64,000 nucleotides of DNA from Candidatus Cloacimonadota bacterium (GTDB lineage: Bacteria; Cloacimonadota; Cloacimonadia; JGIOTU-2): the NCBI GenBank assembly GCA_049903315.1, contig JBNGBT010000004.1, positions 128,001 through 192,000 of the forward strand, read 5' to 3'. This document shows positions 20,226-56,333 of this stretch, piece after piece. The notes under the pieces were generated by a model that saw only the letters and a list, made by a program, of their open reading frames with translations, was not told the DNA's origin and did no database searches. Both the position numbers and the translations under genes were made by a program. Numbering within the stretch: position 1 is the first letter of the stretch; each line of letters opens with the position of its first letter.

Positions 20226-20256
20226 TGTTTATGCTGCCTTATCCTTCTTGTCAAGT

Positions 20257-20413
20257 ATCGTTCTTAACTCAGCGCTTCGCTTTTAAGTCAAGTCCGACAA
20301 TGCTTGAACATGGCTTAAGACTTGAGTTAAGGGCACGAAGTGAACTTGACTTTGTTAGTTCTTAACTCAATTCCTCAGCAAGCTGAGTTATTAAGTCAAG
20401 TCCCAAGTCCGAT
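20257..20413 (+). repeat. Composite hairpin repeat, copy 1 (left border of the signalling island)
   Basis: TCGTTCTTAACTCA..GCTTCGC..TTAAGTCAAGTCCGAC / ACTTGAGTTAAGGGCACGAAGTGAACTTGACTT / TTCTTAACTCAATTCCTCAGCAAGCTGAGTTATTAAGTCAAGTCC. Confidence 0.92.
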
Positions 20414-20742
20414 GGAAGGATATTTTTCTTATCAAGTTTATAATGGATGAAAAATGTAAAATTAATATTTTAGTTATGATTCTGGGTAGCCGCAGTTTTT
20501 ATTTGTATTACGTTAAATTATGGGTAGGAATATTTAAGGAATGTGAAATACTTGACACATAAAAATTATAAGGCATTAAAAAATTTGAACTGAAAGCAAA
20601 AATTTTGGAACATCAAAATTCGGAACTTGATAAAATATCAAGAAGCAGCTGTCGTAAAAGAATAAAACTTGGGAAGAATAGGTAGGTGCCCAAACGAAAA
20701 GTTGTTTCATAGGAATCGAGCTTTATTGATAAGAGGTTTTAG

Positions 20743-25215: not shown

Positions 25216-25653
25216 ATGAAACATGAAGAATATGAAATCCTGATCGTTGAAGATAATCCACAGGACGCCGAGCTCATGGTTCGTTCGCTGAAAAAGAAAC
25301 ATCTGGCAAACAACTTGATTGTAGTGGAAGATGGAGAAGAAGCATTGGATTTTATTTTGTGCCGAGGTGATTATAACGGGAGAGACATAAAAAGACCTCC
25401 CAAAGTGATCTTTCTCGATCTCAAGCTTCCAAAAGTAAACGGATTGGAAGTGTTAAAAGAAATCAAATCTCATCAGCTTACGAAGAAAATTCCTGTTGTA
25501 ATAGTTACTTCTTCCAGAGAAGATCCGGATGTACAGGCAGCTTATGATCTGGGTGCAAACAGCTATGTGGTGAAGCCTGTGAGTTTTGAGAATTTTGCAG
25601 AAACCATGAGCCAACTGGGATTGTACTGGCTGGTCGTGAACGAAAAACCATGA
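25216..25653 (+). CDS. Single-domain response regulator (Rcp1-like)
   Basis: ILIVEDNP, FLDLKLP, TSS, GANSYVVKPV, GLYW. Confidence 0.95.
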   Translation: MKHEEYEILIVEDNPQDAELMVRSLKKKHLANNLIVVEDGEEALDFILCRGDYNGRDIKRPPKVIFLDLKLPKVNGLEVLKEIKSHQLTKKIPVVIVTSSREDPDVQAAYDLGANSYVVKPVSFENFAETMSQLGLYWLVVNEKP

Positions 25654-26054
25654 TAGTCTGCCACAGAGACACAAAGGACACAGAGATAAATATAAATAAA
25701 ATAACTGAAAAAATAATTGGCTGTGGTATAGAAGTTCATAGAGAGTTAGGTCCCGGATTATTAGAATCAATTTATGAATCAGCATTATCTATTGAATTTA
25801 GAAACTGTGGTTTAAAATATGAACGGCAAAAAGTGCTTCCTGTAGAATATAAAGGAGCTAAAATAGGTGAATTTAGAATCGATTTATTAGTTGAGAATTC
25901 TGTAGTTGTTGAATTGAAGAGTGTAGAACGATTCGATCCAGTTTTTGAAGCACAAATTTTGACTTACATGAAATTAGGTAAATATAAAATAGGTTTATTA
26001 ATGAATTTCAATTCAAAATTATTAAAAGATGGTATTAAAAGATACATTTTTTAA
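25650..26054 (+). CDS. GxxExxY family protein (PD-(D/E)XK-like)
   Basis: LGPGLLESIYE, RIDLLVE..VVVELKS, AQILTY, GLLMNF; visibly more AT-rich than its neighbours. Confidence 0.92.
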   Translation: MIVCHRDTKDTEININKITEKIIGCGIEVHRELGPGLLESIYESALSIEFRNCGLKYERQKVLPVEYKGAKIGEFRIDLLVENSVVVELKSVERFDPVFEAQILTYMKLGKYKIGLLMNFNSKLLKDGIKRYIF

Positions 26055-26087
26055 AACTGTCTTTGTGCTCACTGTGGCTCTGTGGCA
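25659..26087. mobile_element. Putative GxxExxY mini-element bounded by 28-bp imperfect inverted repeats
   Basis: TGCCACAGAGACACAAAGGACACAGAGA (25659-25686) versus TCTTTGTGCTCACTGTGGCTCTGTGGCA (26060-26087). Mobility is inferred, not shown. Confidence 0.55.
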
Positions 26088-26115
26088 TGTTGAGTTACAT
26101 ACTAAGTTTATACGA

Positions 26116-26246
26116 TATGAACGGCCAAAAGTGCTTTCTGTTGAATATAAAGGAGCTAAGATGGTATTAAAAGATACATTTTTAAAACTGTCTTTGTGCT
26201 CTCTGTGGCTCTGTGGCATGTTGAGTTACATAATAAGTTTATACGA
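26116..26246 (+). pseudogene. Internally deleted tandem duplicate of the GxxExxY 3' part and right repeat
   Basis: 26116-26159 copies about 25817-25861 and is fused to a copy of about 26028-26115; a few substitutions are present. Confidence 0.85.
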
Positions 26247-26257
26247 AAGGTTGTTTT

Positions 26258-28408
26258 ATGACAACAAAATTACATGTATTGATTGTTGAGGACCTGCCTT
26301 CTGATGCTGAACTTGCGAAGTATGAAATTAATAAAGTCTTAGAAAACTATCTTACTCAGGTTGTCGAGACTGAAGATGATTTCAGAAAAGCGCTTGAGTC
26401 GTTTAAACCCGATCTCATTATCTCGGATTATAAACTCCCTTCTTTTGACGGTTTATCTGCCTTAAAGATCGCTCAGGAAAAATCACCATTCACTCCTTTT
26501 GTTATCCTCACCGGATCGATGAATGAGGACACAGCAGTCAAATGTATGAAAGCCGGCGCAGACGACTATGTAATAAAGGAGCATATCAAAAGATTGGGTC
26601 CTGCAATTCTCAACGCGATGAAAAAGAAACAAATTGAGTTCGAGCGTGCGCAACAGGAAAAAGAATATAGGCAATTGATAGATGGCATGAATGATACTGC
26701 TTTCGTGATAAACTTTGAAGGTAAATTCGTTGAGGTGAATGAGACTGCTGTCCGTGTTTTGGGTTATTCTAGAGATGAACTGCTTACTATGGGACCTACT
26801 GATATCGATCCTCACTTAACTGCAGAAGATATTGGGAAAATGATCAGAGAAATTGAATCGGGATCAGCAAAAAAACAGGTGTTTGAAACAGAGCACAGAA
26901 CCAAAACAGGTAAAATCATACCTGTGGAGATCAGCTCGAGCCCAATAACATATAAAAGGGAATTCGTGATTTTAAGCATTGCCAGAGATATTACTGAACG
27001 AAAAAGAATAGAGGAGAAACTTAAGGATTCGGAAATTAAATATCGCGGTCTATTCGAAAACTCAAGCGAGTTCCTTTTTACACTTGATCTTAAAGGTAAT
27101 TTCACAGATGTTAACAAAGCAGCAGAAAATCTCACCGGCTACACAAAAGCCGAGTTGTTAAAGATGAATTTCAAAAATTATACAAAAAAAGAGGATTATA
27201 GAAGACTTTTTATTGCTTTCAATAATATTTATAAAACAGGAAAACCCCTGCATAATCTTTTTATTGAAGCAAATATGAAGGACAAATCAAAAAGATATTT
27301 TCAGATAAGTCTCAATCTTTTGCGGAAAGGTAAAGAGATTATCGGCTACCAGGGCAGCTCAATGGATATTACAGAACGCAAACTGGCTGAAGAAACCCTG
27401 AAAAGGAGCGAAGAATTTAACCGGGCTATTATAGAGAATAGCAAGGATTGTATTAAGCTCCTTGATCTCGATGGAAACTTGCTTTATATGAGCCCGGGTG
27501 GGCAGGAACTCCTCGAAATCGATGATATAGGAAAATATTTGAACAAATCGTGGATCGAGTTCTGGAAGGGAGAAGATTACGAGAATGCAAAATGTTCTAT
27601 CAACCAAGGGAAAGAAGGTGGAACCGGATATTTTGAAGGATATTGTTCTACAGAAAAAGGAACTCCAAAATGGTGGAGTGTGATAATATCACCTATTTTA
27701 GATGAACATGGGAAGGTTGATAAAATTCTGTCAATCTCGAGGGATATTACCGAACGAAAGCAAGCCGAAGAACAGATCAAGAAAGAACTGCTGGAAAATA
27801 AGGTATTGTTGAGGGAAGTTCACCATAGAACAAAAAATAATCTGCAAACGATCAACAGTTTGTTGCAGCTCCAACAGGATACGATAAAGACAAAAGAAGA
27901 TGCCTTCAAAAGTTTTGAGGTCAGCCAGGACAGGATACGAACAATGGCGCAAGCGTATGAAATTCTGCTTGCATCGGAATACATGTCTGAAGTGAAACTT
28001 GGCGAGTATCTTACCTTGCTTGCAGGACAGCTCAAACGTAATTATGATGCATATAATAAAGTAAAGATTACCTTTTCTTTAGAGGAAGTGCACTTTGAGA
28101 CGGAAAAGTTGAGTAAACTTGGTCTCATTGTAAATGAAATTCTGACAAATGCGATGAAATATGCCTTTCAAGGAAAAGATAAGGGCAATATACATATTGA
28201 GTTAAACGATATGAAGGATCATTTAGTGATCAAGATTTCAGATGATGGAATAGGTATTCCTGAAAACATTGATGTTCATAAACCAGAAACACTTGGGTTG
28301 TCACTTGTTGGTATGCTGCTCGAGGAGTTCAACGGATCATTTTCTGTGGAGAGGAAAAAAGGAACGAGTTTTACACTGGAAATACCGAAGGAGAGAATAA
28401 ATCAATAA
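26258..28408 (+). CDS. REC-PAS(x3)-HisKA_2-HATPase hybrid kinase
   Basis: VLIVED...ISDYKLP; three PAS/PAC; EVHHRTKNNLQ; NAMKYAF; DDGIGIP; TLGL. Confidence 0.93.
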   Translation: MTTKLHVLIVEDLPSDAELAKYEINKVLENYLTQVVETEDDFRKALESFKPDLIISDYKLPSFDGLSALKIAQEKSPFTPFVILTGSMNEDTAVKCMKAGADDYVIKEHIKRLGPAILNAMKKKQIEFERAQQEKEYRQLIDGMNDTAFVINFEGKFVEVNETAVRVLGYSRDELLTMGPTDIDPHLTAEDIGKMIREIESGSAKKQVFETEHRTKTGKIIPVEISSSPITYKREFVILSIARDITERKRIEEKLKDSEIKYRGLFENSSEFLFTLDLKGNFTDVNKAAENLTGYTKAELLKMNFKNYTKKEDYRRLFIAFNNIYKTGKPLHNLFIEANMKDKSKRYFQISLNLLRKGKEIIGYQGSSMDITERKLAEETLKRSEEFNRAIIENSKDCIKLLDLDGNLLYMSPGGQELLEIDDIGKYLNKSWIEFWKGEDYENAKCSINQGKEGGTGYFEGYCSTEKGTPKWWSVIISPILDEHGKVDKILSISRDITERKQAEEQIKKELLENKVLLREVHHRTKNNLQTINSLLQLQQDTIKTKEDAFKSFEVSQDRIRTMAQAYEILLASEYMSEVKLGEYLTLLAGQLKRNYDAYNKVKITFSLEEVHFETEKLSKLGLIVNEILTNAMKYAFQGKDKGNIHIELNDMKDHLVIKISDDGIGIPENIDVHKPETLGLSLVGMLLEEFNGSFSVERKKGTSFTLEIPKERINQ

Positions 28409-28419
28409 ATGCCGTTCTT

Positions 28420-28574
28420 GTCGTTCTTAACTCAATGCTTCGCTTTTAAGTCAAGTCCGACAAGACTCAAGACTTGAGTTAAGGGCACGCAGTGAACTTG
28501 ACTTAAGGATTGTGGGTGAAGTATCGTTCTTAACTCAATTCCTCAGCAAGCTGAGTTATTAAGTCAAGTCCGAT
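28420..28574 (+). repeat. Composite hairpin repeat, copy 2
   Basis: Units A, B and C complete; starts 12 nt after the kinase stop at 28408. Confidence 0.95.
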
Positions 28575-28767
28575 AGAATTTTTCATACTGCCTAATAAAT
28601 TAAGCAAACTGCGGAATTAATTCAGCACTTTGGGGAAAATACTATTTTGCACAATTATTTTTCAGCTAGATTTAATAATTAATTAAATCACGTAACTTAC
28701 TGCCAAAAAGCACATTGCAAAATTGCAATCTCCAATTCAAGAATAATATCCCGGTTAATGACAACAC

Positions 28768-35607: not shown

Positions 35608-37797
35608 ATGGAACTTACATTAAATATTTTACTGGTAGAAGATAATCCAGGTGATGTGGAATTGATAAAAGAAATGATGGAACAGCCACATATCCGGAAT
35701 TCTACAATTATAGAAGCCAGAAACCTAGAACAAGCGATTTCCAAACTTCAAGAAGACACTTTTGATATTATACTTTTAGATTTGGGCTTGCCGGACAGCG
35801 CTGGTTTGATGACGCTCACTGATATATTGCAGTATGCAAAAAAGATTCCTGTGGTGGTTCTTACAGGTCTTGATGACGAGAGTTTGGCAGTGGATGCGAT
35901 ACGCAAAGGCGCCGAGGATTATCTCCCCAAAAATAAGATGGATGCTGAAGTTCTTTTGCGTGTTCTTCGGTATGCAATAGAGCGCAAACGCGTACGTGAA
36001 GCTTTACATGCAAGTGAAAAAAAATACAGGTACCTTGTGAATGAAATCAATGATGGGATTTATAATTCTGATATTGATGGCAATTTCACTTTTACAAATA
36101 ATGCACTCTGCTCGCTCCTTGGCTATGAAGAGGAAGAATTGATCGGGAAACCTTTTAGGGAGCTTATTATACCTGATGAGCGGGAACGATTCATAACATT
36201 ATATAAAGATACTCTCAAAACCGGCAAATCTCATGGAGTCATTGAAGTGCCGATTCAGGATAATAATGGAAATTCCCTGGTTATCGAGATAAAACCAGTC
36301 GTGATCAAGAGGGGGGGGAAACCGGTCGGCTCCCGCGGAGTTGTGCGTGATGTAACTCAACGCAAACAATGGGAGACACAATTACAAGCAAGTGAGAACC
36401 GCTATCGCTCTTTTGTGGAGAATTTCCACGGCATTGCTTTTCGCAGCAGTCTGGATTGGATTCCACTGTACTTTCATGGTGCGGTAAAAGAGATCACGGG
36501 TTACACAGAAGCAGAATTCATTAATGGTAAGCCCCGCTGGGATCAGATCATATATAAGGATGATCTGGAAAAGCTCATGACACCTGAATCACAGGAAGGA
36601 ATAAAGCAGGTCGGATATGTGGCAGAGCGAGAGTACAGGATCGTCACAAAATGCGGGGAAATAAAATGGCTGCATGATTATATACAAACTGTATATGATG
36701 ACCTACTCGGGGAGAATATCCTGCAAGGTGCACTCTATGATATTACTGACAGAAAAAAGGCAGAGGAAGCGTTGATTTTGGGAGAAAGGCAAATCAGATT
36801 TCAGGCGGAACTGCTCCAGAACGCGCCGATGATAGCAGCTTTTCACGACAAAGATCTCAATATGGTCTGGGCAAACAACGCATATGAAAAAGCAACCGGA
36901 TCATCCTTGGCGGAAATGAAGAACAGGAAGTGTTATTCTGTGTGGAATCTTTCCAGACCGTGTCGCAACTGTCCTGTTATGAAGGCAATAGAAACAGGAG
37001 AATCTCATGAGGCGGAGTTAACACCTCAAAACCAGGATCATTGGCCTGAGTCTCAGGGATGCTGGCTCTCAAAAGCTGCTCCTGTACGTGAAAGGGACGG
37101 CAGTATTATCGGAGCCATTGAAATTGCGATAAATATCACAGAACTCAAGCAGGCGGAAGAAGAATTAAAGATGAACCGCGAGAGATTAAAAACAGCAACC
37201 TCAATTCTGCGGCACGACATCATTAATGATCTTTCTGTGATCAAAAGCGCAGTTGATATATATCGTGATGAGCACGACGAAACGATGATTGACGAGATAG
37301 AGAAACGAGTAAAGAAAACAATAGAAACGATAAATAATCAAAGAGATCAGGTTAAGTTCTTAGATGCTCATGCTGAGCTGGATGAATATAACTTGGAAGA
37401 AGTACTATATAATGTCTTAAAAAATTATCCATGCCTTGAGATGACGATTTCGGGCTCCGGCAAAGTTTATGCTGATAATGCCATATATTCAGTATGTGAG
37501 AATATAATCAGCAATGCAATCAAACATGGAAAAAATAAAAAAATAGATATCGATATTGTTCCAGACAAAGAATATTGCGAGGTCAGATTTAAGGATTATG
37601 GTACTGGCATACCTGACGAAATAAAGGATAAGATTTTTGATGAGGGTTTCCATTATGGCAAGTCCGGTCATACGGGTATTGGTCTCTTTATTGTGAAGAA
37701 GACTATCGAGGAATATGGCGGAGAAGTTTCAGTGAAGGATAATAAACCGAGTGGAGCCATATTTGTCATTCGTTTAAAGAAAACGGTCGAAAGATAA
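35608..37797 (+). CDS. REC-PAS(x3) histidine kinase with RHD-type H-box
   Basis: LLDLGLPDS; three PAS; ILRHDIINDL; DYGTGIP; GHTGIGL. Confidence 0.92.
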   Translation: MELTLNILLVEDNPGDVELIKEMMEQPHIRNSTIIEARNLEQAISKLQEDTFDIILLDLGLPDSAGLMTLTDILQYAKKIPVVVLTGLDDESLAVDAIRKGAEDYLPKNKMDAEVLLRVLRYAIERKRVREALHASEKKYRYLVNEINDGIYNSDIDGNFTFTNNALCSLLGYEEEELIGKPFRELIIPDERERFITLYKDTLKTGKSHGVIEVPIQDNNGNSLVIEIKPVVIKRGGKPVGSRGVVRDVTQRKQWETQLQASENRYRSFVENFHGIAFRSSLDWIPLYFHGAVKEITGYTEAEFINGKPRWDQIIYKDDLEKLMTPESQEGIKQVGYVAEREYRIVTKCGEIKWLHDYIQTVYDDLLGENILQGALYDITDRKKAEEALILGERQIRFQAELLQNAPMIAAFHDKDLNMVWANNAYEKATGSSLAEMKNRKCYSVWNLSRPCRNCPVMKAIETGESHEAELTPQNQDHWPESQGCWLSKAAPVRERDGSIIGAIEIAINITELKQAEEELKMNRERLKTATSILRHDIINDLSVIKSAVDIYRDEHDETMIDEIEKRVKKTIETINNQRDQVKFLDAHAELDEYNLEEVLYNVLKNYPCLEMTISGSGKVYADNAIYSVCENIISNAIKHGKNKKIDIDIVPDKEYCEVRFKDYGTGIPDEIKDKIFDEGFHYGKSGHTGIGLFIVKKTIEEYGGEVSVKDNKPSGAIFVIRLKKTVER

Positions 37798-37817
37798 AAA
37801 ATGAAAAAATATTATGT

Positions 37818-38035
37818 GTCGTTCTTAACTCAACGCTTCGCTGTTAAGTCAAGTCCGACAAGACTTGAAAAAGACTCAAGACTTGAGTTAAGGGCACGAA
37901 GTGAACTTGACTTAAGGATTGTTGTTGGTGCAGTATCGTTCTTAACTCAATCCCTCAGCAAGCTGAGTTATTAAGTCAAGTCCGATGAAAGGGATAGAAA
38001 ATGCGAAGTGAATTTGACTTAAGGATTTTGGACGA
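37818..38035 (+). repeat. Composite hairpin repeat, copy 3 (longest; units A, B, C and partial second B)
   Basis: Full units plus GCGAAGTGAATTTGACTTAAGGATT; followed by heptamer run ACGAGTT-GCGGGTT-GCGGGTT (38032-38052). Confidence 0.95.
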
Positions 38036-38135
38036 GTTGCGGGTTGCGGGTTGTTTATTATCCGCTTGAGGAGAACGATTAATTCGTCATAGATGGATTG
38101 AATGAATTTTTTATGAATATATGTAGGAGTTAAGA

Positions 38136-41100
38136 ATGTTTAAAAAAGTTCGTGCTCGATATTGGAGCACTATAATGATAATTTTTCTTTTTGTTATATT
38201 ATCAACAACCTCAATAGCAGCACAAAATACAAAGCACATGTTGCATGCGGTAAAAGATACAATACTTGTTGCTTCAGAACCGAGCTATCCACCATTCTGC
38301 ATCGTGGATGAGGACGGGAACGCAGATGGTTTTTCTGTAGATCTCATAAAAGCTGCTGCAGAAGTGATGCATCTCAATATTAAGTTCAAGGTAGGTCCAT
38401 GGGCTGAGATCAAACAAGAGCTGGTAGAAGGAAAGATCGATGCCCTGCCATTGGTTGGACGTTCACCGGAGCGGGAAGCAGTCTATGATTTCACTTTTCC
38501 TTATCATATTATGAATGGGGCTGTATTCGTACGAAAAGGAACCAAAGGCATCGAAACATTGGGCGATCTGAAGCATAGAGATATCGCAGTCATGAAAGGA
38601 GATAATGCACACGAGTTTGTCGCGAGGGTGAAATTATCCGACAAGATACACACTACACTGACCTATGATGTTGCTTTCCAGGAACTTTCTGAAGGCAAGT
38701 ATGATGCGGTCATTGCCCAGCAGCTCATGGGATTGCAACTATTAAATGAACTAAATATTCAAAATGTACAAGCCCTTGATATTGAACTCACGGATTTCAA
38801 CCAGGATTTCAGCTTTGCAGTGCAAGAAGGTAATAAAGAACTTTTAGCAGTTTTGAATGAAGGATTATCAATAATAGTTGCGAACGGAACGTATGATGAA
38901 TTGCATAAAAAATGGTGGTCACCCATCACTATAAGCGGTCTATCAACCAAAGAAAAAATCACAATGCTTCTGCCCTATATTATCAGTATTATTTTTATCA
39001 TAGCCATTATTGCCATAGTAGTTTTGGAAATACGGGTAAAGAGGAGAACACGCAAGCTTCGGAAGGAAATTGCTGTACGCAAACAAACAGAAATAGCTTT
39101 AAAAGAAAGCGAAGAGAAGTATCGAAATATTTTCGAGAATGTGCTGGATATGTTCTTTGAGGTGCGCCTTGATGGTGAAATCATTGATGTGAGCCCTTCA
39201 ATTCAGGAGCTGTCTTACGGTCAATACAAAAGAGATGATCTTATCGGCAGATCAATGTATGATTTGTATGCGGATCCGGCTATGCGGGAGGTATTTCTAG
39301 AAGCTTTGCAAAAGCAGGGAAGTGTGGCTGATTATGAAATTATATTCAAAAATCGGGATGGCTCTGAAGTTCCCTGTTCTATCTCTGCACGCATCCAGTG
39401 TGATGCGCAGGGCACACCCACGAAGATAATCGGCAGTATGCGTAATATCACCGAACGAAAAAGGGCAGAAGAAGAGCTGAAGAAAATTGAATGGCTGCTC
39501 GAAAAAGAAAAAAAGGAATCCTCAAAAATAGCAAAGAATTATATTCCAGATTACGGAGATGTAACCAAACTCAATACGGAAAGGACAATTCTGGATAATG
39601 TGGGAGCAGACACATTAAAAACCCTGTGCTCTGACATCATGGATTTGCTGGACACCTCGATTGCGATTTATGAAAAAAATGGTGATTATGCCTATGGTCA
39701 GTTTGACTCAAGGTGGTGTCAGACAATGGATATAGCGTCTTTTCGGTTATGTAAAACGCAGGACAATAAAGAAGCTCTGAGTTGCGGTAAATGGTTATGT
39801 CATGAAAATTGCTGGAATGACTCGGCAAAAGAAGCGATCATTACACAAAAAACAACAGATATTGAATGTGTCGGGGGAATTCATCTATACGCAGTTCCAA
39901 TTTTCGCAGGTAGAGAGTTAGTTGGCGTTATCAATATGGGCTACGGTAATCCTCCAACCGAAGAAAAAAACTTAATAGAACTGGCCGAAAAATTTCACGT
40001 CGAATATGAAGTTTTGGACGAGAATGCAACAAACTACAGAGCCCGACCTCCTTTTATTATCGAAAATGCCAAAAAGCGTTTACAAACCGTAGCACAACTC
40101 ATTGGCAAAATTGTAGATAGTGCGGAAAAAGAAAAGCAAATTAAAGAAAGCGAAGATTTCCTTAATCGAACAGGAGAAATATCCAGAGTAGGCGGTTGGC
40201 AGCTTGCAGATAATTTTACACGGGTAGAATGGACAAAAACAACCGGAGATATTCATGAACTTTCTGAAGGGGTTTATCCTACTTTAGAAGATGCGATCAA
40301 CTATTACCATCCAGATGACCGCGATAAGGTTAATAAAAGCGTTTCTGATGCAATTGAAAAAGGCAAGCCTTTTGATTTTCAAACCAGATTGATAACCGCG
40401 AAAGGAAACTTACGCTGGGTAAGGGCAATAGGTTGTCCTGAAATGAAAAATGGAAAATGTGTCCGGCTTTCCGGAACATTCCAGGATATTACTGAACATA
40501 AACAGGCTGAAGAGAAACTAGAAGCAGCTAAGGAAAAAGCTGAAGAAAGCGAAGCCCGTTTGCGTGATGCCCAGAGAATTGCCAATATCGGCAACTGGTC
40601 CTTAGATCTGCAAACTGGAAGAGTCGAAATGTCTGACGAAATGTTAAACCTTAACGGACTGAAAGATAAGAACGAAGCTTTAGATGTAGCGAATCATGAG
40701 AAATTCTATACACCAGAAAGTTGGCTTCGGTTTGAAAAAGCTGTAGAGACATGCAGAAATACAGGTAAAAGTTATGAAATCATAATGGAATTTTCTGATA
40801 AAAATGCTGAATTCCGTTATGCGGTAGCGAGAGGTGAAGCGATTAATGATGAGAATAACAACATCATAGGGCTAAAAGGTACTCTTCAGGATATCACCCA
40901 GCGCAAACGGGCGGAAGAAGAATTAAAGATCAACCGTGAAAGGTTAAAAACTGCAAGCTCCATCCTTCGCCACGATATCACAAATGATTTGACTGTGATT
41001 AAAAGTGCGGTTGATATATATCGTGAAGAACGTGATGAATCCATGATCGATGAGATTGAGAAGCGCGTATGGAAAAGCATAGAAACCATACAAAATCAGC

Positions 41101-41555
41101 GGGATCAGGTACAGTTCCTGGATTCTCATGCCGATCTTGATGAATATGAGCTGAAAGAAGTAGTGCAAAAGGTTCTCAGTAACTATCCGGATTTGAAGAT
41201 CACTGTTACGGGTAACTGTGTTACCTATGCAGATAACGCAATATACTCAGTATTTGATAACATCGTCAACAATGCAGTCAAGCATGGGAAAACCTCTAAA
41301 TTGGATATTGAAATTATTCCAAACAAAGAACATTGTGAGATTAAATTTAAAGATTATGGTATCGGCATACCTGATGAAATAAAGGATAAGGTCTTTGATG
41401 AGGGCTTTCACTACGGAGAAACCGGTCATACAGGTATCGGGCTGTATATTGTTCAGACCACTGTCGAAGAATATGGCGGAGAAGTATTTGTAGAAGACAA
41501 CGAACCAAACGGTGCTATATTTATTATTCGTTTGAAGAAAGCGATTGAAGTTTAA
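38136..41555 (+). CDS. PBPb-TM-PAS-PocR-like-PAS-PAS histidine kinase with RHD-type H-box
   Basis: EPSYPPF...GFSVDL family-3 binding domain, TM, Cys-rich PocR-like domain (ECVGGIHLYAVPI), ILRHDITNDL. Confidence 0.92.
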   Translation: MFKKVRARYWSTIMIIFLFVILSTTSIAAQNTKHMLHAVKDTILVASEPSYPPFCIVDEDGNADGFSVDLIKAAAEVMHLNIKFKVGPWAEIKQELVEGKIDALPLVGRSPEREAVYDFTFPYHIMNGAVFVRKGTKGIETLGDLKHRDIAVMKGDNAHEFVARVKLSDKIHTTLTYDVAFQELSEGKYDAVIAQQLMGLQLLNELNIQNVQALDIELTDFNQDFSFAVQEGNKELLAVLNEGLSIIVANGTYDELHKKWWSPITISGLSTKEKITMLLPYIISIIFIIAIIAIVVLEIRVKRRTRKLRKEIAVRKQTEIALKESEEKYRNIFENVLDMFFEVRLDGEIIDVSPSIQELSYGQYKRDDLIGRSMYDLYADPAMREVFLEALQKQGSVADYEIIFKNRDGSEVPCSISARIQCDAQGTPTKIIGSMRNITERKRAEEELKKIEWLLEKEKKESSKIAKNYIPDYGDVTKLNTERTILDNVGADTLKTLCSDIMDLLDTSIAIYEKNGDYAYGQFDSRWCQTMDIASFRLCKTQDNKEALSCGKWLCHENCWNDSAKEAIITQKTTDIECVGGIHLYAVPIFAGRELVGVINMGYGNPPTEEKNLIELAEKFHVEYEVLDENATNYRARPPFIIENAKKRLQTVAQLIGKIVDSAEKEKQIKESEDFLNRTGEISRVGGWQLADNFTRVEWTKTTGDIHELSEGVYPTLEDAINYYHPDDRDKVNKSVSDAIEKGKPFDFQTRLITAKGNLRWVRAIGCPEMKNGKCVRLSGTFQDITEHKQAEEKLEAAKEKAEESEARLRDAQRIANIGNWSLDLQTGRVEMSDEMLNLNGLKDKNEALDVANHEKFYTPESWLRFEKAVETCRNTGKSYEIIMEFSDKNAEFRYAVARGEAINDENNNIIGLKGTLQDITQRKRAEEELKINRERLKTASSILRHDITNDLTVIKSAVDIYREERDESMIDEIEKRVWKSIETIQNQRDQVQFLDSHADLDEYELKEVVQKVLSNYPDLKITVTGNCVTYADNAIYSVFDNIVNNAVKHGKTSKLDIEIIPNKEHCEIKFKDYGIGIPDEIKDKVFDEGFHYGETGHTGIGLYIVQTTVEEYGGEVFVEDNEPNGAIFIIRLKKAIEV

Positions 41556-41575
41556 AAAATGAAAAAGTATGATGT

Positions 41576-41639
41576 GTCGTTCTTAACTCAACGCTATGCT
41601 GTTAAGTCAAGTCCGACAAGACTTAACTTAAGGATTGTG
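41576..41639 (+). repeat. Composite hairpin repeat, copy 4 (collapsed)
   Basis: Unit A intact; unit B reduced to ACTTAACTTAAGGATTGTG. Confidence 0.9.
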
Positions 41640-41641
41640 CG

Positions 41642-41690
41642 GCACGTGCAGTATTTATTATTCGTTTGAAGAAAGCGATTGAAGGTTAAA
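41642..41690 (+). pseudogene. Orphan 3' tail of an RHD-type kinase gene
   Basis: GCAGTATTTATTATTCGTTTGAAGAAAGCGATTGAAGG matches the last codons of 41713-43287 and 38136-41555. Confidence 0.85.
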
Positions 41691-41712
41691 AAACTATGGA
41701 GCATACATAGAT

Positions 41713-43287
41713 ATGAAAAAAGTTATAGTATTAATTCTAACTATATTTATTCTCTCTCAACTCATAGCCCTGGAACTCACGCAGGAAGAAACTGCCTGGC
41801 TAAAAGAACATCCGGTCATTCGTATTGCTCCTGATCCGGATACTCCTCCTATTGAATGGTTTGATAATAATGGTGAATATCGGGGAATTACTGCTGATTT
41901 TATGAATTTGATTTCCAAAGAACTGGATGTAACGTTTGAAATAGTGAAATGCAAAACCTGGGATGAGGTTCTTTCCAAAGCGCGAAATAGAGAAGTAGAT
42001 TTGATACCGGCAGCAGCTCAAACACCCAGTAGAGCAGAATATATGCTTTTCTCGGAACCTTATCTCACTCTTCCCGGGGTCATTATAACTAAGAATGAAA
42101 ATAAAGATTTAACGACTACTAAAAAACTTAACGGGAAAAGAGTTGGAGTAGTATCAGGTTATATCTGGCATGAAGGTTTAGTCAGAGATTATCCCGATAT
42201 AGAAATTGTTCCTGTAGACCACATCTTGCATGGATTACGTAAAGTGTCCACTGGAGAGATCGATGCATTTGTGGGAATTTTTCCCATTGCACTTTATTAT
42301 ATCGAAAAAGAAGGTATTCACAACTTAATTGTAGCCGGTGAAACCGAATATGAAACCAGGATATCGATCCATACACGTAAAGATTGGCCAGTCCTGAATG
42401 CAATTATAAATAAGAGTCTCAAGAGTATATCGGAAAATAAAAGGAAAGAGATCATAAATAAGTGGATATCACTAAAACCAATGTCGATATTTTCCTACAA
42501 AATTTTCTGGTTGATAGTTATATCTATAATAGGTGCAGGTTTCCTGATCGTAATTGTGATTGCTACCTGGAATGCATCGCTGAAGAAACAAGTGAAACGT
42601 AAAACCAAAGAGCTGGAAGATGATATTGTCATGCGCATGAAGACGGAAGAAGAATTAAAGCTCAGCCGGGAAAGGTTGAAAATAGCAAGTTCCATTTTGC
42701 GGCACGACATTATTAATGATTTGACTGTGATTAAAAGTGCGGTTGATATCTATCGTGAAGATGGGGATGAATCAATGATCGATGAGATAGAGAAACGAGT
42801 TGAGAAAAGCATTGAAACGATACATAAACAAAGGGAACAGGTAAAGTTTATAGATTCTCATTCTGATCTTGATGAATTTGATTTGAAAAAAGTTGTACAA
42901 AAAGTGCTCAGTAACTATCCAAATTTGCTTATCACTATTAAGGGCAATTGTGTTGCGTATGCAGATAATGCAATATATTCAGTATTCGATAACATAGTAA
43001 ATAATACGGTCAGGCACGGGAAAACTTATAAATTGGATATAGAAATTATTCCAAACAAAGAACATTGTGAGGTGAGATTTAAAGATCATGGTATAGGAGT
43101 TCCCGATGAAATAAAGGATAAGGTATTTGATGAGGGCTTCCATTACGGCGAAACCGGTCATACAGGTATCGGTTTGTACATAGTTCAGACCACTGTCGAA
43201 GAATATGGTGGAAAGGTATTTGTAGAAGATAATACACCGCACGGAGCAGTATTTATTGTTCGTTTGAAGAAAGCGATTGAAGGATAA
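41713..43287 (+). CDS. PBPb-TM histidine kinase with RHD-type H-box
   Basis: Signal peptide, LTQEETAWL...DPDTPPIE (BvgS-like binding domain), TM, ILRHDIINDL. Confidence 0.92.
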   Translation: MKKVIVLILTIFILSQLIALELTQEETAWLKEHPVIRIAPDPDTPPIEWFDNNGEYRGITADFMNLISKELDVTFEIVKCKTWDEVLSKARNREVDLIPAAAQTPSRAEYMLFSEPYLTLPGVIITKNENKDLTTTKKLNGKRVGVVSGYIWHEGLVRDYPDIEIVPVDHILHGLRKVSTGEIDAFVGIFPIALYYIEKEGIHNLIVAGETEYETRISIHTRKDWPVLNAIINKSLKSISENKRKEIINKWISLKPMSIFSYKIFWLIVISIIGAGFLIVIVIATWNASLKKQVKRKTKELEDDIVMRMKTEEELKLSRERLKIASSILRHDIINDLTVIKSAVDIYREDGDESMIDEIEKRVEKSIETIHKQREQVKFIDSHSDLDEFDLKKVVQKVLSNYPNLLITIKGNCVAYADNAIYSVFDNIVNNTVRHGKTYKLDIEIIPNKEHCEVRFKDHGIGVPDEIKDKVFDEGFHYGETGHTGIGLYIVQTTVEEYGGKVFVEDNTPHGAVFIVRLKKAIEG

Positions 43288-43290
43288 AAA

Positions 43291-43497
43291 ATGAGAAAGT
43301 ATTATGTAGAAAAAATTATGCAATCGAACGGTGAACACGAGGTTCATTCCGAAGAATGTAAGTCTCTACCAAATGAGGATAATAGAATCTATCTTGGAGA
43401 ATTTTATTGGTGCAGAACCGCAATTGAGGAAGCAAAGAAGCATTATTTTAAAGTAAATGGGTGTTATGCATGCTGTAATGAATGCCATAGAGATTAA
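43291..43497 (+). CDS. Small Cys/His-rich hypothetical protein (68 aa)
   Basis: YYV...NGEHEVH..C..LP...RIYLG.F..C..A..EAK......NGCYACCNECH; starts 3 nt after the kinase stop. Confidence 0.8.
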   Translation: MRKYYVEKIMQSNGEHEVHSEECKSLPNEDNRIYLGEFYWCRTAIEEAKKHYFKVNGCYACCNECHRD

Positions 43498-43537
43498 TTA
43501 TATAAATAATCTAATTCATTTATCCAAAAAAAATCTG

Positions 43538-43602
43538 AAAAACGAAACGAGATTTACCCTGAAAATATCAAAGGAGAGAATAAATCAATAAATTTCATTC
43601 AT
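43538..43602 (+). pseudogene. Orphan 3' tail and 3' UTR of a HisKA_2-type kinase gene
   Basis: AACGAGATTTACCCTGAAAATATCAAAGGAGAGAATAAATCAATAA aligns with about 28363-28408. Confidence 0.8.
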
Positions 43603-43806
43603 GTCGTTCTTACCTCAACGCTTCGCTGTTAAGTCAAGTCCGACAATACTTGAGTTAAGGGCACGAAGTGAACTTGACTTAAGGATTGTGGATGTTGTTG
43701 CAGTTATCGTTCTTAACTCAATTCCTCAGCAAGCTGAGTTATTAAGTCAAGTCCGATGAAAGGGATAGAAAATGCGAAGTGAACTTGACTTAAGGATTGT
43801 GGACGA
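43603..43806 (+). repeat. Composite hairpin repeat, copy 5 (units A, B, C and partial second B)
   Basis: Near-identical to copy 3, including the GATGAAAGGGATAGAAAATGCGAAGTG linker. Confidence 0.95.
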
Positions 43807-44008
43807 TTATTGTATCAGCATACCAGCTGAAATTAAGGATAAGATTTTTGTCGAAGGTTTCCACTACGGAGAAAATGGATATACAGGTATCGGGCTTTAT
43901 ATTGTTAAGACGACTGTTGAGGAATATAGCGGAGAAGTATTTGTAGAAGATAATACACTGAACGGTACAGTGTTTGTCAATCGGTTAAAGAAAACGATTA
44001 GGCGATAA
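43805..44008 (+). pseudogene. 5'-truncated, diverged HATPase C-terminal fragment of an RHD-type kinase
   Basis: DYCISIPAEIKDKIFVEGFHYGENGYTGIGLYIVKTTVEEYSGEVFVEDN, compared with DYGIGIPDEIKDKVFDEGFHYGETGHTGIGL; G1-box glycines are lost. Confidence 0.9.
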
Positions 44009-44505
44009 AAAAATGAAATTGAAAGCTAAGGTCATCCCATCTCCCTTACCTGCAGTTTTATATTGTTGCATGAGTGAGTGGTTAGCCCTTAATGAAAAAA
44101 TTGACAAAGTAAGAATTAAGAAAAGAATATTACTAACACAAGTAAATTTTAACCAGAAAAACTGTTTGTTACATGAGGTTGGATTAGGCGGAGGTATGGA
44201 TGTTAAAGTAGATTGTGAAGCTAGGATTGATAATATCATAATTATTACAGAACAATCAAATGATAGATTTATCTTAAACGGACGATGTGCGGAATTGTTT
44301 TCAAAGGATAGGGAGTCATTCTTTTTTACATCAATAAGAGCAGAAAGCTAATGAACAAGAATATTTCCACATCAAAAACCAGAAGAAAGTCTACAAAAAA
44401 ACAAATAACAAATAATTTGGATAAAGCGATGAGTTTATTCTATCTTGGTATGAAAATAAAACTGGAAAAAATTAAAATACAAGTAGATAAACCGGGAGGT
44501 TTGCT

Positions 44506-47500
44506 ATGAAATTTGTTAATAATCTCTCTATAAAAGGGAAAATTATATCAGTAGTATTACTTGTTGTCTTTCTTGAGATCCTCATATCAGTTGTCGGAAT
44601 TTACTATTTGAATCATTCCGAAAATCAATTAGATTATATCGTAGATATTAAATCGGAGAACATCAAACTTGCTGCTCGAATCCATCGAAACCTGGTTGAA
44701 ATAAATAGAGCTGAAAAAAATCTTCTCCTGTCTAATTCACTGGAAGAAATCGATCTCTATTTATCCAGGATTACAGAGGCAAAGAGTGAACTTGAGTCAA
44801 AATTAATACAGTTGAAATCCCAAATCGAAGAACAGAACATACAATACGTAGAGAACTTTGAAACAAGTTATGCAGAATTTATCAGAAAGAATGAGGAAGT
44901 ACAGGATATAATTTCTCATGAGCTGTTAAAAGCAGATATTACTCAGCTTCAATCTCCTGAAAAATTTATGAATTTCTCGGGCGATGCGGTTATCTCAGCT
45001 AAGAATTTGAGTAGGGAGTCGTATCATAATGCTGCTTCTGCAATGGAAAATCTGGTTGAAAAAATAGATGAAGAGCTTGGAGGGCAGCAGATAATAGCTT
45101 CCAAGAATGCCACCTCCGAACTGACCATTATTATAATAATTGCTTTGGCAAGTATTGTTATCGGGCTAGTGGCTGGATTATGGATAGCGCGATTAATATC
45201 ATCTAATTTGAACAAAGTGGTGCACCTGGCAAACGAAATAGCAGAAGGAAAGCTGGATACAAAGATTGAAATTGAAAGTAAGGATGAGACTGGCAAATTG
45301 GCAGAAGCTACCGAAAAAATGCAGATTTCGTTGCTTAAATCAAGAAATGAATCTGAAGCGGATGACTGGCTGAAAACAGGGATTGTGCGCATTAATGACG
45401 TCATAAAAGGTGAACTTGATTTACCGGATATGGCTAATAAAGTAATTACAGAAATTTCCTCCTATCTCGATGCTCAAATTGGTGCATTCTACCTTTATGA
45501 AAAAAATGACAAAGAAGAAGTCCTGACTTTACTCAGCAGTTATGCCTATCAGAAACGCAAAAACCTGTCGAATACATTCAAAATTGGTGAAGGATTAGTA
45601 GGTCAAGCAGCCTTGGAAAAAGCCCCAATATTGATAAAAAATGTTCCTGAAGATTATATCAAGGTTGTATCAGGCTTGGGTGAAAGAATTCCACAGTATA
45701 TTTGCGTGATTCCGTTTATATTCGAAGGCAAGGTGAAAGGCGTGATCGAAATCGGAACCTTGAATGACTTTACCGACCTGCAAATGGAGTATCTTAACCA
45801 GGCAATGGCTGCAATTGCTATTAATGTTGAAACTGCGAGGAATCGTGATGAACTTGCTAGAGCATTGCAAAAATCTCAAGCGCTTACAGAAGAATTGCAA
45901 AGCCAGCAGGAGGAATTGAGAACTGCCAATGAAGAGCTGGAAGAACAAACACAGCTCTTGCAGCAATCCGAAGAAAAATTAAAAGCCCAGCAAGAAGAAC
46001 TTGAAGTGACGAACGAAGAATTGGAAGAGAAAAACGAATCACTTCAAAGGCAGAAAAGGGATATTGAGAATGCGCGAAAGGAAATTGAAATAAAGGCGGA
46101 AGAACTCGCTATTGCAAGCAAATACAAATCCGAATTTCTTGCAAACATGTCACATGAGCTTCGCACTCCCTTGAATAGTCTATTAATACTCTCTCAAATA
46201 TTAGCTGAAAATAAAAATGGGAATTTGGATAAAAGCCAGGTAGAGTCTGCAAGCGTGATATATAAGAGTGGTAACGATCTTCTTTCTCTTATCAACGAGA
46301 TATTAGATCTTTCCAAGATCGAAGCCGGTAGAATGGATGTCCATGTTGAGCAAATAAATATTAAGGGACTCATAGAGAATATCAAAAACAATTTCCATCA
46401 TATGCTCGACGAAAAAGGGCTGTCCTTAACGACCGAAGTAGATTCCAAAGTGCCCGAATCAATATTAAGCGATAATCAGCGCCTGATGCAGATCATCAAG
46501 AACATTATGTCAAATGCGATCAAATTTACAATGAAGGGGGGCGTTACCGTTAAGGTGAATGTGCCGCCAAACAATGTAGATTTGTCGAGAAGCGGACTTA
46601 AGCCGGATAACTGTATAGCGATCTCGATACAGGACAGTGGAATTGGAATTTCTTCCGAAGAACAGAAGATTATATTCGAAGCTTTCCAGCAGGCAGAAGG
46701 TGGAACATCGAGAGAGTTCGGTGGAACAGGTCTGGGACTTTCAATTTCAAGGGAATTAGCCAATTTGCTTGGAGGAGAAATCCAATTAGTGAGCGAAAAA
46801 GGAAAAGGATCAACATTTACTCTTTATATTCCTGTGAGATTAGTAGAGACAAAAATAAAAATTGCCCCATTATTAAAGATACCTGAGGAACCAGCCATTG
46901 AAGTTATTACGGATAAGAAAACTCCAGCAACAGTCCAACATGAAATACCTGATGACCGTGAGTCTCTTGCAAAGGGAGAAAAAAGTATTCTCATAATCGA
47001 AGATGATCCCAATTTTGCGAAACTGGTCCTCGATCAATGCCATCAGAAGAATTTTAACGGAATCGTCGCGTTAACAGGAGAAGAAGGATTGGAGCTCGCA
47101 GTTCAGTACCTTCCGGCTGCAGTGATTTTGGATCTGCATCTGCCGGGAATTGACGGCTGGAGTGTGCTCGATAGTCTTAAAAATAATCCAGAAACAAGGC
47201 ACATACCGGTTCATATCATGTCTGTAGAGGACTCCACTCTGGAAGCATTCAGAAAGGGGGCAATCGGTTATTTAACAAAACCTGTCAAAAAAGAAGAACT
47301 CGATGGAGCATTCCAGAAACTCGAGGGGATGTTGAGTAAACGAATTAAGGATCTGCTCGTTGTAGAAGATGATCAAGCACTTCGGGACAGCATCATTAAA
47401 TTGATCGGAAACGGAGATGTCCACTGCAAAGCAACAGGTTCTGGCAAAGAGACGCTCAAAGAACTGAAAGCAAATAAATTTGATTGTATCATTCTTGATC

Positions 47501-51201: not shown

Positions 51202-51642
51202 ATGAAAGAAGAGTGGTATGAAATTTTGCTGGTTGAAGACGATCCTAATGATGCTGAAATGACAATAAATGTTTTAACAGAAAATCATCTTGCCAATAAG
51301 ATACATTGGGCTGAAGATGGTGAACAGGCAATTGACTATATTTTTGGATTAGGAAAACATACAGGGCGAAATATTGAACATAAGCCCAAATTGATACTTC
51401 TTGACCTTAAGCTGCCCAAAATTGATGGTTTGGAGATTCTGAAAAGGATCAAATCGGACGGGATAATGAAAACGATACCGGTCGTGATACTCACGTCATC
51501 AAGAGAAGATAATGATATCTTGAAAAGTTATAGTCTCGGAGTAAACAGCTACATCGTGAAGCCGGTTGATTTTGACCAGTTTTCTAAAGTAGTGAACGGA
51601 TTGGGTTTGTATTGGCTGTTATTAAACCAGCCCCCGGAGTAA
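51202..51642 (+). CDS. Single-domain response regulator (Rcp1-like)
   Basis: Close paralogue of 25216-25653: LLDLKLP, GVNSYIVKPV, GLYW. Confidence 0.95.
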   Translation: MKEEWYEILLVEDDPNDAEMTINVLTENHLANKIHWAEDGEQAIDYIFGLGKHTGRNIEHKPKLILLDLKLPKIDGLEILKRIKSDGIMKTIPVVILTSSREDNDILKSYSLGVNSYIVKPVDFDQFSKVVNGLGLYWLLLNQPPE

Positions 51643-51695
51643 ACAATGAAAACAAATATAAACACAGCATCATCACAAGAAAGAAAGGAAGAGTT

Positions 51696-54600
51696 ATGAA
51701 ACGTAAGATCAAATTCTTAATCCTCGAAGATGTGCTCACCGACCTCGAATTAGTTCTTATGGAACTAGAAAAAGCACAATTAGAATTCACTTATCTTCAT
51801 GTAGAAACCGAAAAGGATTTTATAAAAGGATTACATGAATTTAAACCTGATCTTATTCTCTCGGATTATAGATTGCCCCAGTTCAATGGCATGCAAGCAC
51901 TCAAACTGAATAAAGAAATTTCACCTTTAATACCCTTTATTATCATAACTGGTTCGATCAACGAAGATACTGCAGTTGAATGCATGAAAGCAGGTGCAAC
52001 AGATTATGTCATAAAACAAAATCTCATTCGGCTTAATTCTGCTATTGAACAGGCTCTGGATAAGAAAGTGCTGCTCGAAGAAAAGACCAAAGCAGAAGAA
52101 GCATTGCGTGAAAAAAGCTATATTCTGAATGAACGTGTTAAAGAACTCAATTGTCTGTATAAAATTTCTCAACTTGTCGAAACACCCGGGATCTCGGATA
52201 AACATTTCTTTCAAGGTGTTGTCGATCTCATACCTCCCGCCTTTCAACATAGCAATATTACCGTTTGCAAGTTGATAATAAATGATAAGGAATTTTTAAC
52301 AAAGAATTTTACACAAACCGATTGGGCACTCCACCAAGATATAGTTATCAATAATGTAAAAGCTGGTGTGATTGACGTTTATCATATAAAAGCGATACCT
52401 GAAACAAAGGATCAGCAATTCTTGGATGAAGAGAAGAGTCTCCTTAATGCAGTCGCTGAACATCTCGGACGTGTTGCCGAACATAAAACAGCAGAAGATA
52501 GTATTTTTCATTTGAACAAAGTTTTGAGAGCAATTCGAGATGTAAATCAGCTTATTGTAAAAGAAAAGAACATGAGTGCCCTTATTAAAAAGTCATGTGA
52601 TATTCTCACCAAAACAAGGGGCTATGATCGTGCCTGCATAGTATTGTTTGATGAACATGATCAACCATACAAATCTTCCCTGGCAAAGAATACCCCAGAA
52701 TATGTTCTATTCGAAAAAGCAGTAAAAAAAGGAACCTGGGATGGGATGTGCAGAAAAGTTATGGATCAGGAAGGAATTGTAATACTTGATAATCCGGAAG
52801 AACAGTGCAAAGGTTGTCCGCTACAATCACTTGTCCCGAAATCTAAAGCCATGTCGATCAGGTTGGAATATGAAGGAAAGATATTCGGCTTTATTAGTGG
52901 CTGGATTCCGGAAAGAATACCGTTAAATGCTGATGAACAGGATTTATTCATCGAAGTTGCCGGTGATATAGGTTTCGCTCTTTATACTGCTGAACTCGAA
53001 AAGAAACGGAAAGAAGCCATCGATTCACTTGCTGCCAGTGAAGAAATGTTCCGATTGCTCGCAGCGAACTCGATCGACTGTATCTGGAAAATCAATAAAA
53101 AATTACAATTCACCTATCTCAGTCCTGCTTTGGAACGAATGACTGGATTTAAACCGGAAGAATGGGTTGGAACACATTTAAGCACTCATTTTACTAAGAA
53201 AGAATTTCTCAAAGTAAGCGCTCTGGCAGTTAATGCATTAAAGAATTATAAAAATTTTTCACATATTACTTTTGAGACCAAAATGCTCAATAAGAATAAA
53301 GAAGAAATAGACTTTGAAATAACCAGTAAACTAATCAAAGATAAAAAAGGAAAAATAATCGGACTACAGGGTACTACACGTGATATTTCAGACAGAAAAA
53401 AAAATGAACAAACTATCAAGCAAAACCGTGAGATGCTTGTACGAACGGAAGCAATCGCACATATTGGTAGCTGGGAATGGGAAATAGCCACCGATACGGT
53501 CATCTGGTCTGATGAGTTATTCCGAATTTTCGGTATAGAAATTGCAAAAACCGCTCCCAGCTGGAAAGAGCATTCTGCTCTCTATTATCCTGAGGATATG
53601 AAGAAATTGACCGCTGCTGTGGAAAAAGCTGTGACCAAAGGGAGTACCTACGAGATGGAACTCAAAGCTATCCGGAAAGACGGTGAGACCAGGATCTGCC
53701 TTGCACGCGGAATCGCAAGGAAAGGAAAAGGTGGGAAAATAACTCACCTCTTCGGGTCACTGCAGGATATTACAGAAAGCAAGGAGGCAGAAGAAAAAAT
53801 CACCAAAGCAAATCGGATATACTCAGTGATCAGTCAAATCAATCAAACGATTGTACACGAAAAAGATAAAAATTTACTCTTTAGAGAAGCCTGCCGCATT
53901 GCTGTCGAGTTTGGAAAATTTCAATTAGCCTGGATCGGCATAGTCGATGAATCTACAAAACTGGTGGTTCCTGTTCAATATGCGGGGAATGGGGCCGGAT
54001 ATTTCTCCACAATTCCCCAGATATCCGTCGAAGATATACCTGAAGGCAGAGGTCCTACCGGTACAGCCATTCGAGAAGGAAAACATGTTGCCTGCAATGA
54101 TATACCCAATGATCCCCGCATGACTCCATGGCGTGAAGAAGCTCTCAAGCGAGATTATCGTTCTGCCATTGCTCTTCCCATAAAACTCTACGATAAAGTG
54201 ATCGGCGCTTTTAATATATACTCTAACAATCCGCATTTCTTTGATGAAACTGAAATAGCTCTTCTGGATGAAATAACTCAGGATATATCATTTGCTATTT
54301 CTGCTATCGAGACGGAAAATAAACGTATTAAAGCTGAAGAAGCCCTGATCAAAAATGAAAAAAAATACAGAGATATTTATGAAAACATCCAGGATGTGTA
54401 TTATGAAACCGATCTTAAGGGAAATATACTGGAAGTGAGTCCCTCTATTAAAGCACTTTCCAGAGGACAATATACCAGAGAGGAAGTAATCGGCAAGAAT
54501 ATGAATGATTTCTATTCGAAACCTGAAGAAAGAACGGAGTTGATCCAGGAGTTATTAAAACATAAACGGGTATCGGATTATGAAATCACTCTGAAAAATA

Positions 54601-56237: not shown

Positions 56238-56247
56238 ATGTCATTCT

Positions 56248-56333
56248 GTCGTTCTTAACTCAACGCTTCGCTTTTAAGTCAAGTCCGACAAGACTTGAGT
56301 TAAGGGCACGAAGCGAACTTGACTTAAGGATTG
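56248..56333 (+). repeat. Composite hairpin repeat, copy 6 (right border of the signalling island)
   Basis: Units A and B; starts 11 nt after the kinase stop at 56237. Confidence 0.93.

Follow-up and report, generated by a model that had tools for sequence, protein, structure and literature searches.

Among the closest described counterparts of the repeat analysed here are the REPtrons and bacterial interspersed mosaic elements (BIMEs) of Escherichia coli. [quoted passage not shown] The enzyme makes its single-strand cuts at a dinucleotide on the 5' or the 3' side of the REP, at linker sites too, and joins the ends (PMC3333891, PMC8266576). Both papers treat the spread of REPs as an unsettled matter and RAYT genes as immobile. 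Natural filled and empty pairs with base-level ends are the data missing from this question. Here we analyse a window of 64,000 nucleotides from a Candidatus Cloacimonadota bacterium (C44:128001-192000 of G000, a 2.96-Mb genome, 96% complete), in which a repeat that an initial annotation had left unnamed occurs six times along a cluster of sensor kinase and regulator genes (20.7-56.2 kb). We identify the repeat as a REP family associated with RAYTs. The locus thereby provides REPs of a non-GTAG kind, a cognate RAYT, one clean two-ended filled/empty pair and one one-sided junction.

The REP consists of a module X (RTCG-TT-CTTAACTCAA-loop-TTAAGTCAAG-TC-CGAY) and a module Y (AAGA-CTTGAGTTAA-loop-TTGACTTAAG-GATTG). 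Folding places the X hairpin on the bottom strand and the Y hairpin on the top strand, with z-scores on the preferred strand of -2.1 to -5.5 for four of five stretches and -1.4 for the fifth. The modules form inverted X/Y pairs with variable linkers, extended to alternating arrays at loci L045, L049, L080 and L149. The genome contains eight clusters, six in the window and two diverged ones elsewhere, all intergenic. The repeat was also found in 7/10 congeners, at four metagenome loci and at 40 GTDB loci, mostly titled Cloacimonadota or Neomarinimicrobiota. Viral contigs gave no match to the repeat pattern, and Rfam gave none at gathering score over 37500-44200, with one sub-threshold match (E 0.18) outside the repeats.

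The locus has the structural properties of a REP/RAYT system and fails on the GTAG foot; a cognate RAYT occurs in relatives, and only its start stub in the window. No GT[AG]G was present at the hairpin foot, which reads AGAC in Y and GGAC or AGAC in X (bottom strand). Besides this foot, it differs from the E. coli REPtron in having only eight genome clusters rather than hundreds, a distant RAYT recognized by profile match only, and an element whose end seems to be defined and for which an empty site seems to exist. By its published description (PMC6006769, 10.1101/119735), TnpA-REP subclass 2.6, or RAYT group 5, has proteins of about 190 aa with Y-x-x-x-NP, and atypical non-GTAG flanking hairpins that recur elsewhere in the genome; on this comparison the present pair best resembles subclass 2.6. 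The repeat itself is not among the 60 (of 70) subclass-2.6 entries of supplement 2 of PMC6006769 that were compared, and the strings Cloacimon and Marinimicrob do not occur in that table. The CGTC-REP families were considered and rejected, having shorter perfect stems and no transposase (PMC3733652). A RAYT within a rapidly reshuffled paralogue family has a parallel in picocyanobacterial TnpA-REP genes and fragments beside prochlorosin genes, which belong to subclass 2.1 and have no identified REPs, whereas hairpins and base-level junctions are visible here, in sensor kinases; the authors of that study find no strong evidence of causation (10.1101/2020.03.09.984088). Among the papers listed by our literature search, which left most subscription journals outside its reach, none dealt with RAYTs or REPs of Cloacimonadota, or with REPs in the shuffling of kinases.

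Three RHD-type sensor kinases in the island, K1, K2 and K3, are followed 3 nt past their stops (37797, 41555 and 43287) by the same start: ATGAAAAAATATTATGT at 37801, ATGAAAAAGTATGATGT at 41559 and ATGAGAAAGTATTATGT at 43291. The initial annotation had described this common start, continuing after K3 as an intact small gene (S) and switching into the repeat after nucleotide 17 at the other two, and the description holds to the base. Both stubs equal the start of the intact gene at 15/17 nt, while the following 30 nt agree at only 10/30; the two stubs differ from each other at 2/17. With up to two mismatches, the 17-mer occurs nine times in the genome on both strands, three of them these sites. 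The stubs are not chance matches, because two in-register matches follow paralogous stops and the 17-mer is found just nine times genome-wide. As had also been claimed, the rest of the small gene is absent beyond the repeat: no second copy of 43308-43540 was found in the genome by blastn, and a protein search gave one match. Four further RHD-type kinases of the genome, one of them in the window (7926-9695), carry no stub.

The repeat begins with TGTCGTTCTTA at 28419, 37817, 41575, 43602 and 56247, that is, in five of the six window copies; copy 1 (20256) begins AAG|TATCG rather than TGTCG. In the bottom-strand fold, the junction falls precisely where X1 has the end of its basal stem, TGTCG/CGACA. 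Across 71 distinct X units, the foot pairs are A-T (27), A-C (12), G-T (2), G-C (17) or other (13), and 56 of the 58 in the four named classes are pairable on the bottom strand (Fisher p 5e-5, overstated by the non-independence of kin). TGTCG belongs to the element because the foot bases covary and the stem closes at the junction: T|GTCG is the REP hairpin foot, the element's own end, and the T is not a fixed target base but the last pair of that foot. Left flanks were tabulated for 86 X units (38 cluster-first, 48 internal) lying more than 60 nt from a contig end, which removed, for example, the first X of L151 and L152. TGTCG begins 6/38 cluster-first units, namely the five window copies and L149, and 5/48 internal ones; outside the island lineage it begins 0/32 cluster-first units, a seventh 'TG' row not being TGTCG. 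The tabulation refutes a fixed T and is compatible with an end fixed at |RTCG, where conservation stops. The position of the junction itself is ambiguous by 1-3 nt of microhomology.

As the initial annotation had noticed, copies 2, 5 and 6 begin at the same T|GTCG in a different flank. This flank is the 3' end of HisKA_2 kinases, as in L149 and the related genome G004, the one before copy 5 being an orphan remnant. Because they share it, copies 2, 5 and 6 count as one event, and the five TGTCG copies represent only two junction lineages. In G004 a second copy of the HisKA_2 end, located after the small gene, continues directly with what stands behind the REPtron in L149: the left alignment ends at ...TTCAT, the right one resumes within about 3 nt, 1033 nt are absent, and there is no duplication. 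This second HisKA_2 end is a clean empty or excised site, which supports a precise left end and not replacement. The orthologue of copy 2 in G004 lacks this REP and holds another repeat in its place, so copy 2 arrived with the kinase end. Other comparisons added no junction. A pattern search for HisKA_2-type ends gave five matches in 3/23 genomes, without a new informative empty site, L153 not being among those examined; the other REP loci compared with G000 gave just two collinear pairs, too diverged to map; at the C66 site, relatives hold different repeats or a different RAYT; and contig pieces from 4/17 sequencing runs contained no joint that removes the REP in the same organism, uncovered parts counting as no evidence.

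In the small-gene lineage, the K3 site had been read as the empty counterpart of the two filled ones. It is not truly empty, REP copy 5 beginning 295 nt past the junction point. The window retains there the order K3, S, orphan HisKA_2 end (a), copy 5, kinase remnant r3, and removing 43308-43602 yields exactly the kinase, stub and REP-remnant layout of K1 and K2. We infer that the remainder of the small gene was lost most simply by a one-sided deletion of 295 nt from a kinase-gene-REP unit like 43291-43602. Copies 3, 4 and 5 share a loop variant, and each is followed by an RHD-kinase 3' remnant. The proposal that the two filled sites descend from one event is unlikely if meant as duplication of the whole unit, K1 and K2 not being sisters: over the last 195 codons K2 and K3 are 84% identical and K1 and K2 74%, and duplication does not fit because K2 is closer to the unfilled K3 than to the filled K1. 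K1 and K2 differ at 25/43 fourfold sites, with no K2-like tract at the K1 end. The stub-REP join was probably moved from one kinase to the other by crossover within 14 identical bases around the stop; that it happened twice is rather unlikely, and an old join later homogenised is a still weaker candidate. Between the K2 orthologues (window 38136-41555 against L141), identity is 89% over the 5' 1.4 kb and 78% in the kinase core, a sensor/core swap.

Two unrelated flanks, each with an unfilled homologue (for the small gene, at 43291 and in G004; for the HisKA_2 end, its second copy in G004), break at the same element end, and in this respect the claim that a precise end was joined to two targets stands. 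That the repeat replaced downstream DNA is borne out for the small gene and not for the HisKA_2 flank, with its clean empty site and at most a few bases unaccounted for. Neither flank with an unfilled homologue shows a target duplication. From the hairpin-foot junctions at the two flanks follows a specific candidate cut site, at the hairpin foot, for an unstudied RAYT branch.

The site orthologous to copy 6 in L149 holds an intact element, in the order kinase end, X1 Y1 X2, RAYT, further hairpins and then a 228-aa gene; L045 has the layout [Y X]-gene-[Y X] with a gene of 190 aa. The RAYT is a Y1 transposase (PF01797, 26.5 bits against a cut-off of 23) in which HUH and Y-x-x-x-NP are invariant. 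A single-sequence search of the PDB gave no match, and a 20-sequence profile gave only E. coli TnpA-REP 4ER8 (E 2.5e-5). Homologues occur in 76/232 genomes of the phylum, G000 not among them. We compared 33 RAYT loci, the 30 best homologues plus L045, L080 and L149. The repeat was present at eight of them, seven in one eight-member clade (support 94/88) and one among the other 25; the eighth clade member carries a variant repeat, seen by eye, and in other clades the layout is the same but the hairpins are diverged. Upstream, 17/33 loci have a GTCY foot within 45 nt, against 8.7% of 1777 G000 open reading frames (ORFs); downstream, a foot was counted in at least 11/32, an underestimate since stop-finding slipped frame in several rows. 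Because copies 3 and 5 both follow L149 to the second codon of the RAYT, ribosome site included, and then jump to the Y half, they are RAYT-deleted REPtrons; their X2-stub-Y parts are identical at 99/102 nt. Near-identical RAYTs (75-95% over 105 aa) stand at different loci in records of three phyla.

Five of the seven REP-clade RAYTs (L080, L083, L084, L107, L149, L091, L092) lie directly after a PAS/kinase-type signalling gene, compared with about 3/26 others, judged from translations; this position may reflect descent with the island. G000 has other RAYT-type genes, L199 (C11:196.1 kb), L200 (C22:246.8 kb), L231 and L232, two of which exceed the NF047646 cut-off. Two distant RAYTs in this genome carry other repeats; L199 and L200 have palindromes of their own, and the C22 X unit adjoins a copy of the L199 repeat. 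The genome also holds an IS200-like tnpA with an internal TGA (C5:17388-17747, L024), next to an IS21-like helper remnant. We rejected this gene, the look-alike motif nearby lying inside its own coding end, and found the repeat array at 0/12 Y1_Tnp loci examined.

We consider it probable that the clusters are relics of a REPtron, with junctions made by the RAYT and spread by kinase-end recombination. The RAYT, a TnpA-REP-like HUH/Y1 single-strand transposase, and its hairpins would once have stood at the island's right end, behind the HisKA_2 kinase, where the relative L149 shows them. At that flank the element would have been inserted or cleanly removed; in the small gene it would have joined one-sidedly into nucleotide 17, with the rest removed. 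Both junction types would most likely be RAYT cut-and-join just 3' of the REP. The RAYT body would later have been deleted between its start and a downstream hairpin. The clusters would then have been copied around the island via paralogous kinase 3' ends, leaving remnants of 40-200 nt, as relatives suggest, and would now be inert unless another RAYT acts. A bottom-strand cut 3' of X would be C|A, one of the Marinomonas cleavage sites (PMC8266576). The guide rule borrowed from that paper has an AGAC foot predict G|T. By analogy, G|T would be an exact fit to the small-gene junction if this is read one base to the left, as G|TGTCG, and the downstream linker of L149 is taken as donor; at the G004 empty site of the HisKA_2 lineage the rule would not fit without an extra change.

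Several points weigh against this reading. There are just two junction lineages, each with 1-3 nt of microhomology, a trace that slippage leaves too. A T is all that the two empty sites have in common, with no shared dinucleotide at T|G, and for E. coli TnpA-REP the dinucleotide must be identical in both partners. In the L149/G004 comparison the right end can be placed to within about 3 nt, the flanks being about 85% identical, and the G004 empty-site copy is a duplicate of uncertain history. An intact K1-S or K2-S unit was not found in 22 relatives. The RAYT falls below the NCBIfam REP_Tyr_transpos (NF047646) cut-off, with 57.4 and 62.7 bits against 80, and since no cognate RAYT was found in G000 at its 96% completeness, RAYT activity cannot be dated.

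The same relics could have spread by kinase-end recombination with junctions produced by host replication slippage or hairpin processing, as deletions that use 1-3 nt of microhomology and stop at a stable single-strand hairpin foot, with no RAYT chemistry. In that case it is a commonplace repeat that decays within an array of recombining paralogues. We regard this as a possible, though less favoured, explanation. The junction coincides with the hairpin foot, and microhomology is present in both lineages (CAT; T or GT), as it is at other joins of the clusters: the RAYT stub-Y join uses CGA, the right end of copy 2 uses AGAA, and the X15 joint lies between two TATGG. The island is, moreover, full of REP-free short-homology rearrangements, such as the 50-nt remnants in G004 and G008. 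However, the removal or insertion of 1033 nt with each end placed to about 3 nt, and without direct repeats at the flanks, is an atypical outcome of slippage, and the near-identical RAYTs at different loci in three phyla need an enzyme-driven route.

At the other extreme, this RAYT clade may not be domesticated at all. It would move the whole REPtron with a fixed end at the X-hairpin foot, like the right end of IS608, and one-ended joins together with kinase-end recombination would actively reshuffle sensor-kinase islands of Cloacimonadota; on this view one base would have been hit twice, independently, in K1 and in K2. This we hold to be unlikely. IS200/IS605 elements such as IS608 share with the present one the enzyme family, one-strand hairpin ends, the absence of target duplication and an element-defined end 3' of a hairpin. 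They differ in that here there is no TnpB, hairpins come in multi-hairpin arrays, and no target tetranucleotide is shared by the two empty sites. An IS608-type fixed target tetranucleotide was sought by eye at the empty sites and not found; for a conserved tetra- or pentanucleotide, one two-ended pair is available, its right end ambiguous by about 3 nt.

Within the island, copies 1 and 6 mark the edges, and in G009 the two genes flanking it are at most 2 kb apart. One and the same REP-remnant join stands in front of three sequences, namely the small gene of G004, the K3 leader of L151 and a 112-aa gene of the window; sequencing run X15 has a shorter remnant. Congeners again show the kinase-repeat-remnant order, both with other REP variants and with no REP at all. 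Because the joins front three different flanks and the layouts recur without REPs, kinase 3'-end recombination suffices to explain the copy number independently of the RAYT. The observation is largely explained by a known element class plus paralogue recombination; what is new is a REP/RAYT pair with natural junctions.

All six window copies have the same orientation, downstream of genes, and their imperfect inverted repeats have CTTAAC/GTTAAG as cores; the same contig carries, about 28 kb past the window, an integron-like integrase. These features would suit an attC-like recombination site of a site-specific system shuffling kinase cassettes, an interpretation we consider very improbable. Next to the integrase stands an array belonging to it, made of another repeat that the REP query did not match, and no integrase is among the 50 ORFs of the window. 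The repeat flanks RAYT genes, its copies are 2-12.6 kb apart and span operons, and its cores miss the attC consensus RYYYAAC/GTTRRRY. The array itself (C44:214900-221477, L226) is a probable integron array, with an integrase of 354 aa (TIGR02249, 135+99 bits, under cut-off) and small genes between which a repeat of 120-130 nt recurs about six times.

Chimeric assembly of paralogous repeats could in principle produce stub-REP joins: the contigs listed for run X13 break at the repeats, and none among the pieces listed bridges 37817 or 41575. Yet 13 runs, which may be the source of the assembly, hold 97-98% of 907 sampled words of 36500-45000, the stubs and REP copies carry private substitutions, and relatives show the same kinds of joins. 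An artefact is accordingly the least credible of the explanations.

The features of the window are collected in table 1. The small gene S encodes a protein with HEVH and CxxCCxxC motifs that has homologues in 4/22 relatives and no match to Pfam or NCBIfam families.

Table 1. Coordinates of kinases, small-gene stubs, REP clusters and remnants in the window.
Feature	Position	Strand	Remark
REP cluster copy 1 (begins TATCG), left edge of signalling island	20256..20422	+	
REP cluster copy 2, after HisKA_2 kinase 26258-28408	28419..28575	+	G004 orthologous site without this REP
K1, RHD-type sensor kinase (REC-PAS-HATPase), 729 aa	35608..37797	+	
17-nt small-gene stub after K1	37801..37817	+	15/17 to 43291
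REP cluster copy 3: X1 (37817-37860), Y1, X2, RAYT start stub, half Y	37817..38035	+	
Ribosome site and first codons of deleted RAYT	37992..38006	+	match to RAYT starts in L080, L083, L107, L149
RHD kinase 3' remnant r', present also upstream of K2 orthologue in G004	38054..38093	+	
K2, RHD-type sensor kinase (SBP_bac_3-PAS-PocR-PAS-HATPase), 1139 aa	38136..41555	+	5' part orthologous to G004, 3' core not
17-nt small-gene stub after K2	41559..41575	+	15/17 to 43291
REP cluster copy 4 (X1 and collapsed Y tail)	41575..41637	+	
r'', 48-nt RHD kinase 3' remnant; L151 has full-length 200-nt form	41646..41693	+	
K3, RHD-type sensor kinase (SBP_bac_3-HATPase), 524 aa	41713..43287	+	
S, intact 68-aa Cys-rich small gene	43291..43497	+	
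a, orphan HisKA_2 kinase 3' end	43537..43602	+	hybrid: 5' part G004 REP-free copy, 3' part REP-bearing kinase end
REP cluster copy 5 (X1, Y1, X2, RAYT stub 43763-43777, half Y)	43602..43804	+	
r3, 200-nt RHD kinase 3' remnant, begins at DYG motif like G004 and L151	43805..44008	+	
REP cluster copy 6, after HisKA_2 kinase 51612-56237	56247..56333	+	L149 orthologous site is intact REPtron

Copy 1 is flanked by a near-direct 12-nt repeat (20243-20255 and 20425-20437, one mismatch) that resembles the REP's own 3' arm, and the right copy is conserved in REP-free relatives. The word (TG)TCGTTCT, possibly an older REP relic, is present at the island insertion site in 3/7 relatives checked (L205/G007, L206/G009, L208/G001), with the 228-aa gene following about 165-170 nt downstream. 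The intergenic spot at C66:88560-88720 is a turnover hotspot: there and in the orthologues L159-L166, congeners differ in what they hold, some having almost nothing and others this REP pair, a different RAYT, repeat arrays or a toxin-antitoxin-like gene pair. A tandem GCGGGTT word at 38039-38053, single in G000 and located after the copy-2 kinase orthologue in G004, is a relic of another repeat family. Finally, the GxxExxY gene (TIGR04256, window 25650-26260) has palindromic CACAGAG/CTCTGTG flanks, and about 130 nt of its 3' end are tandemly duplicated.

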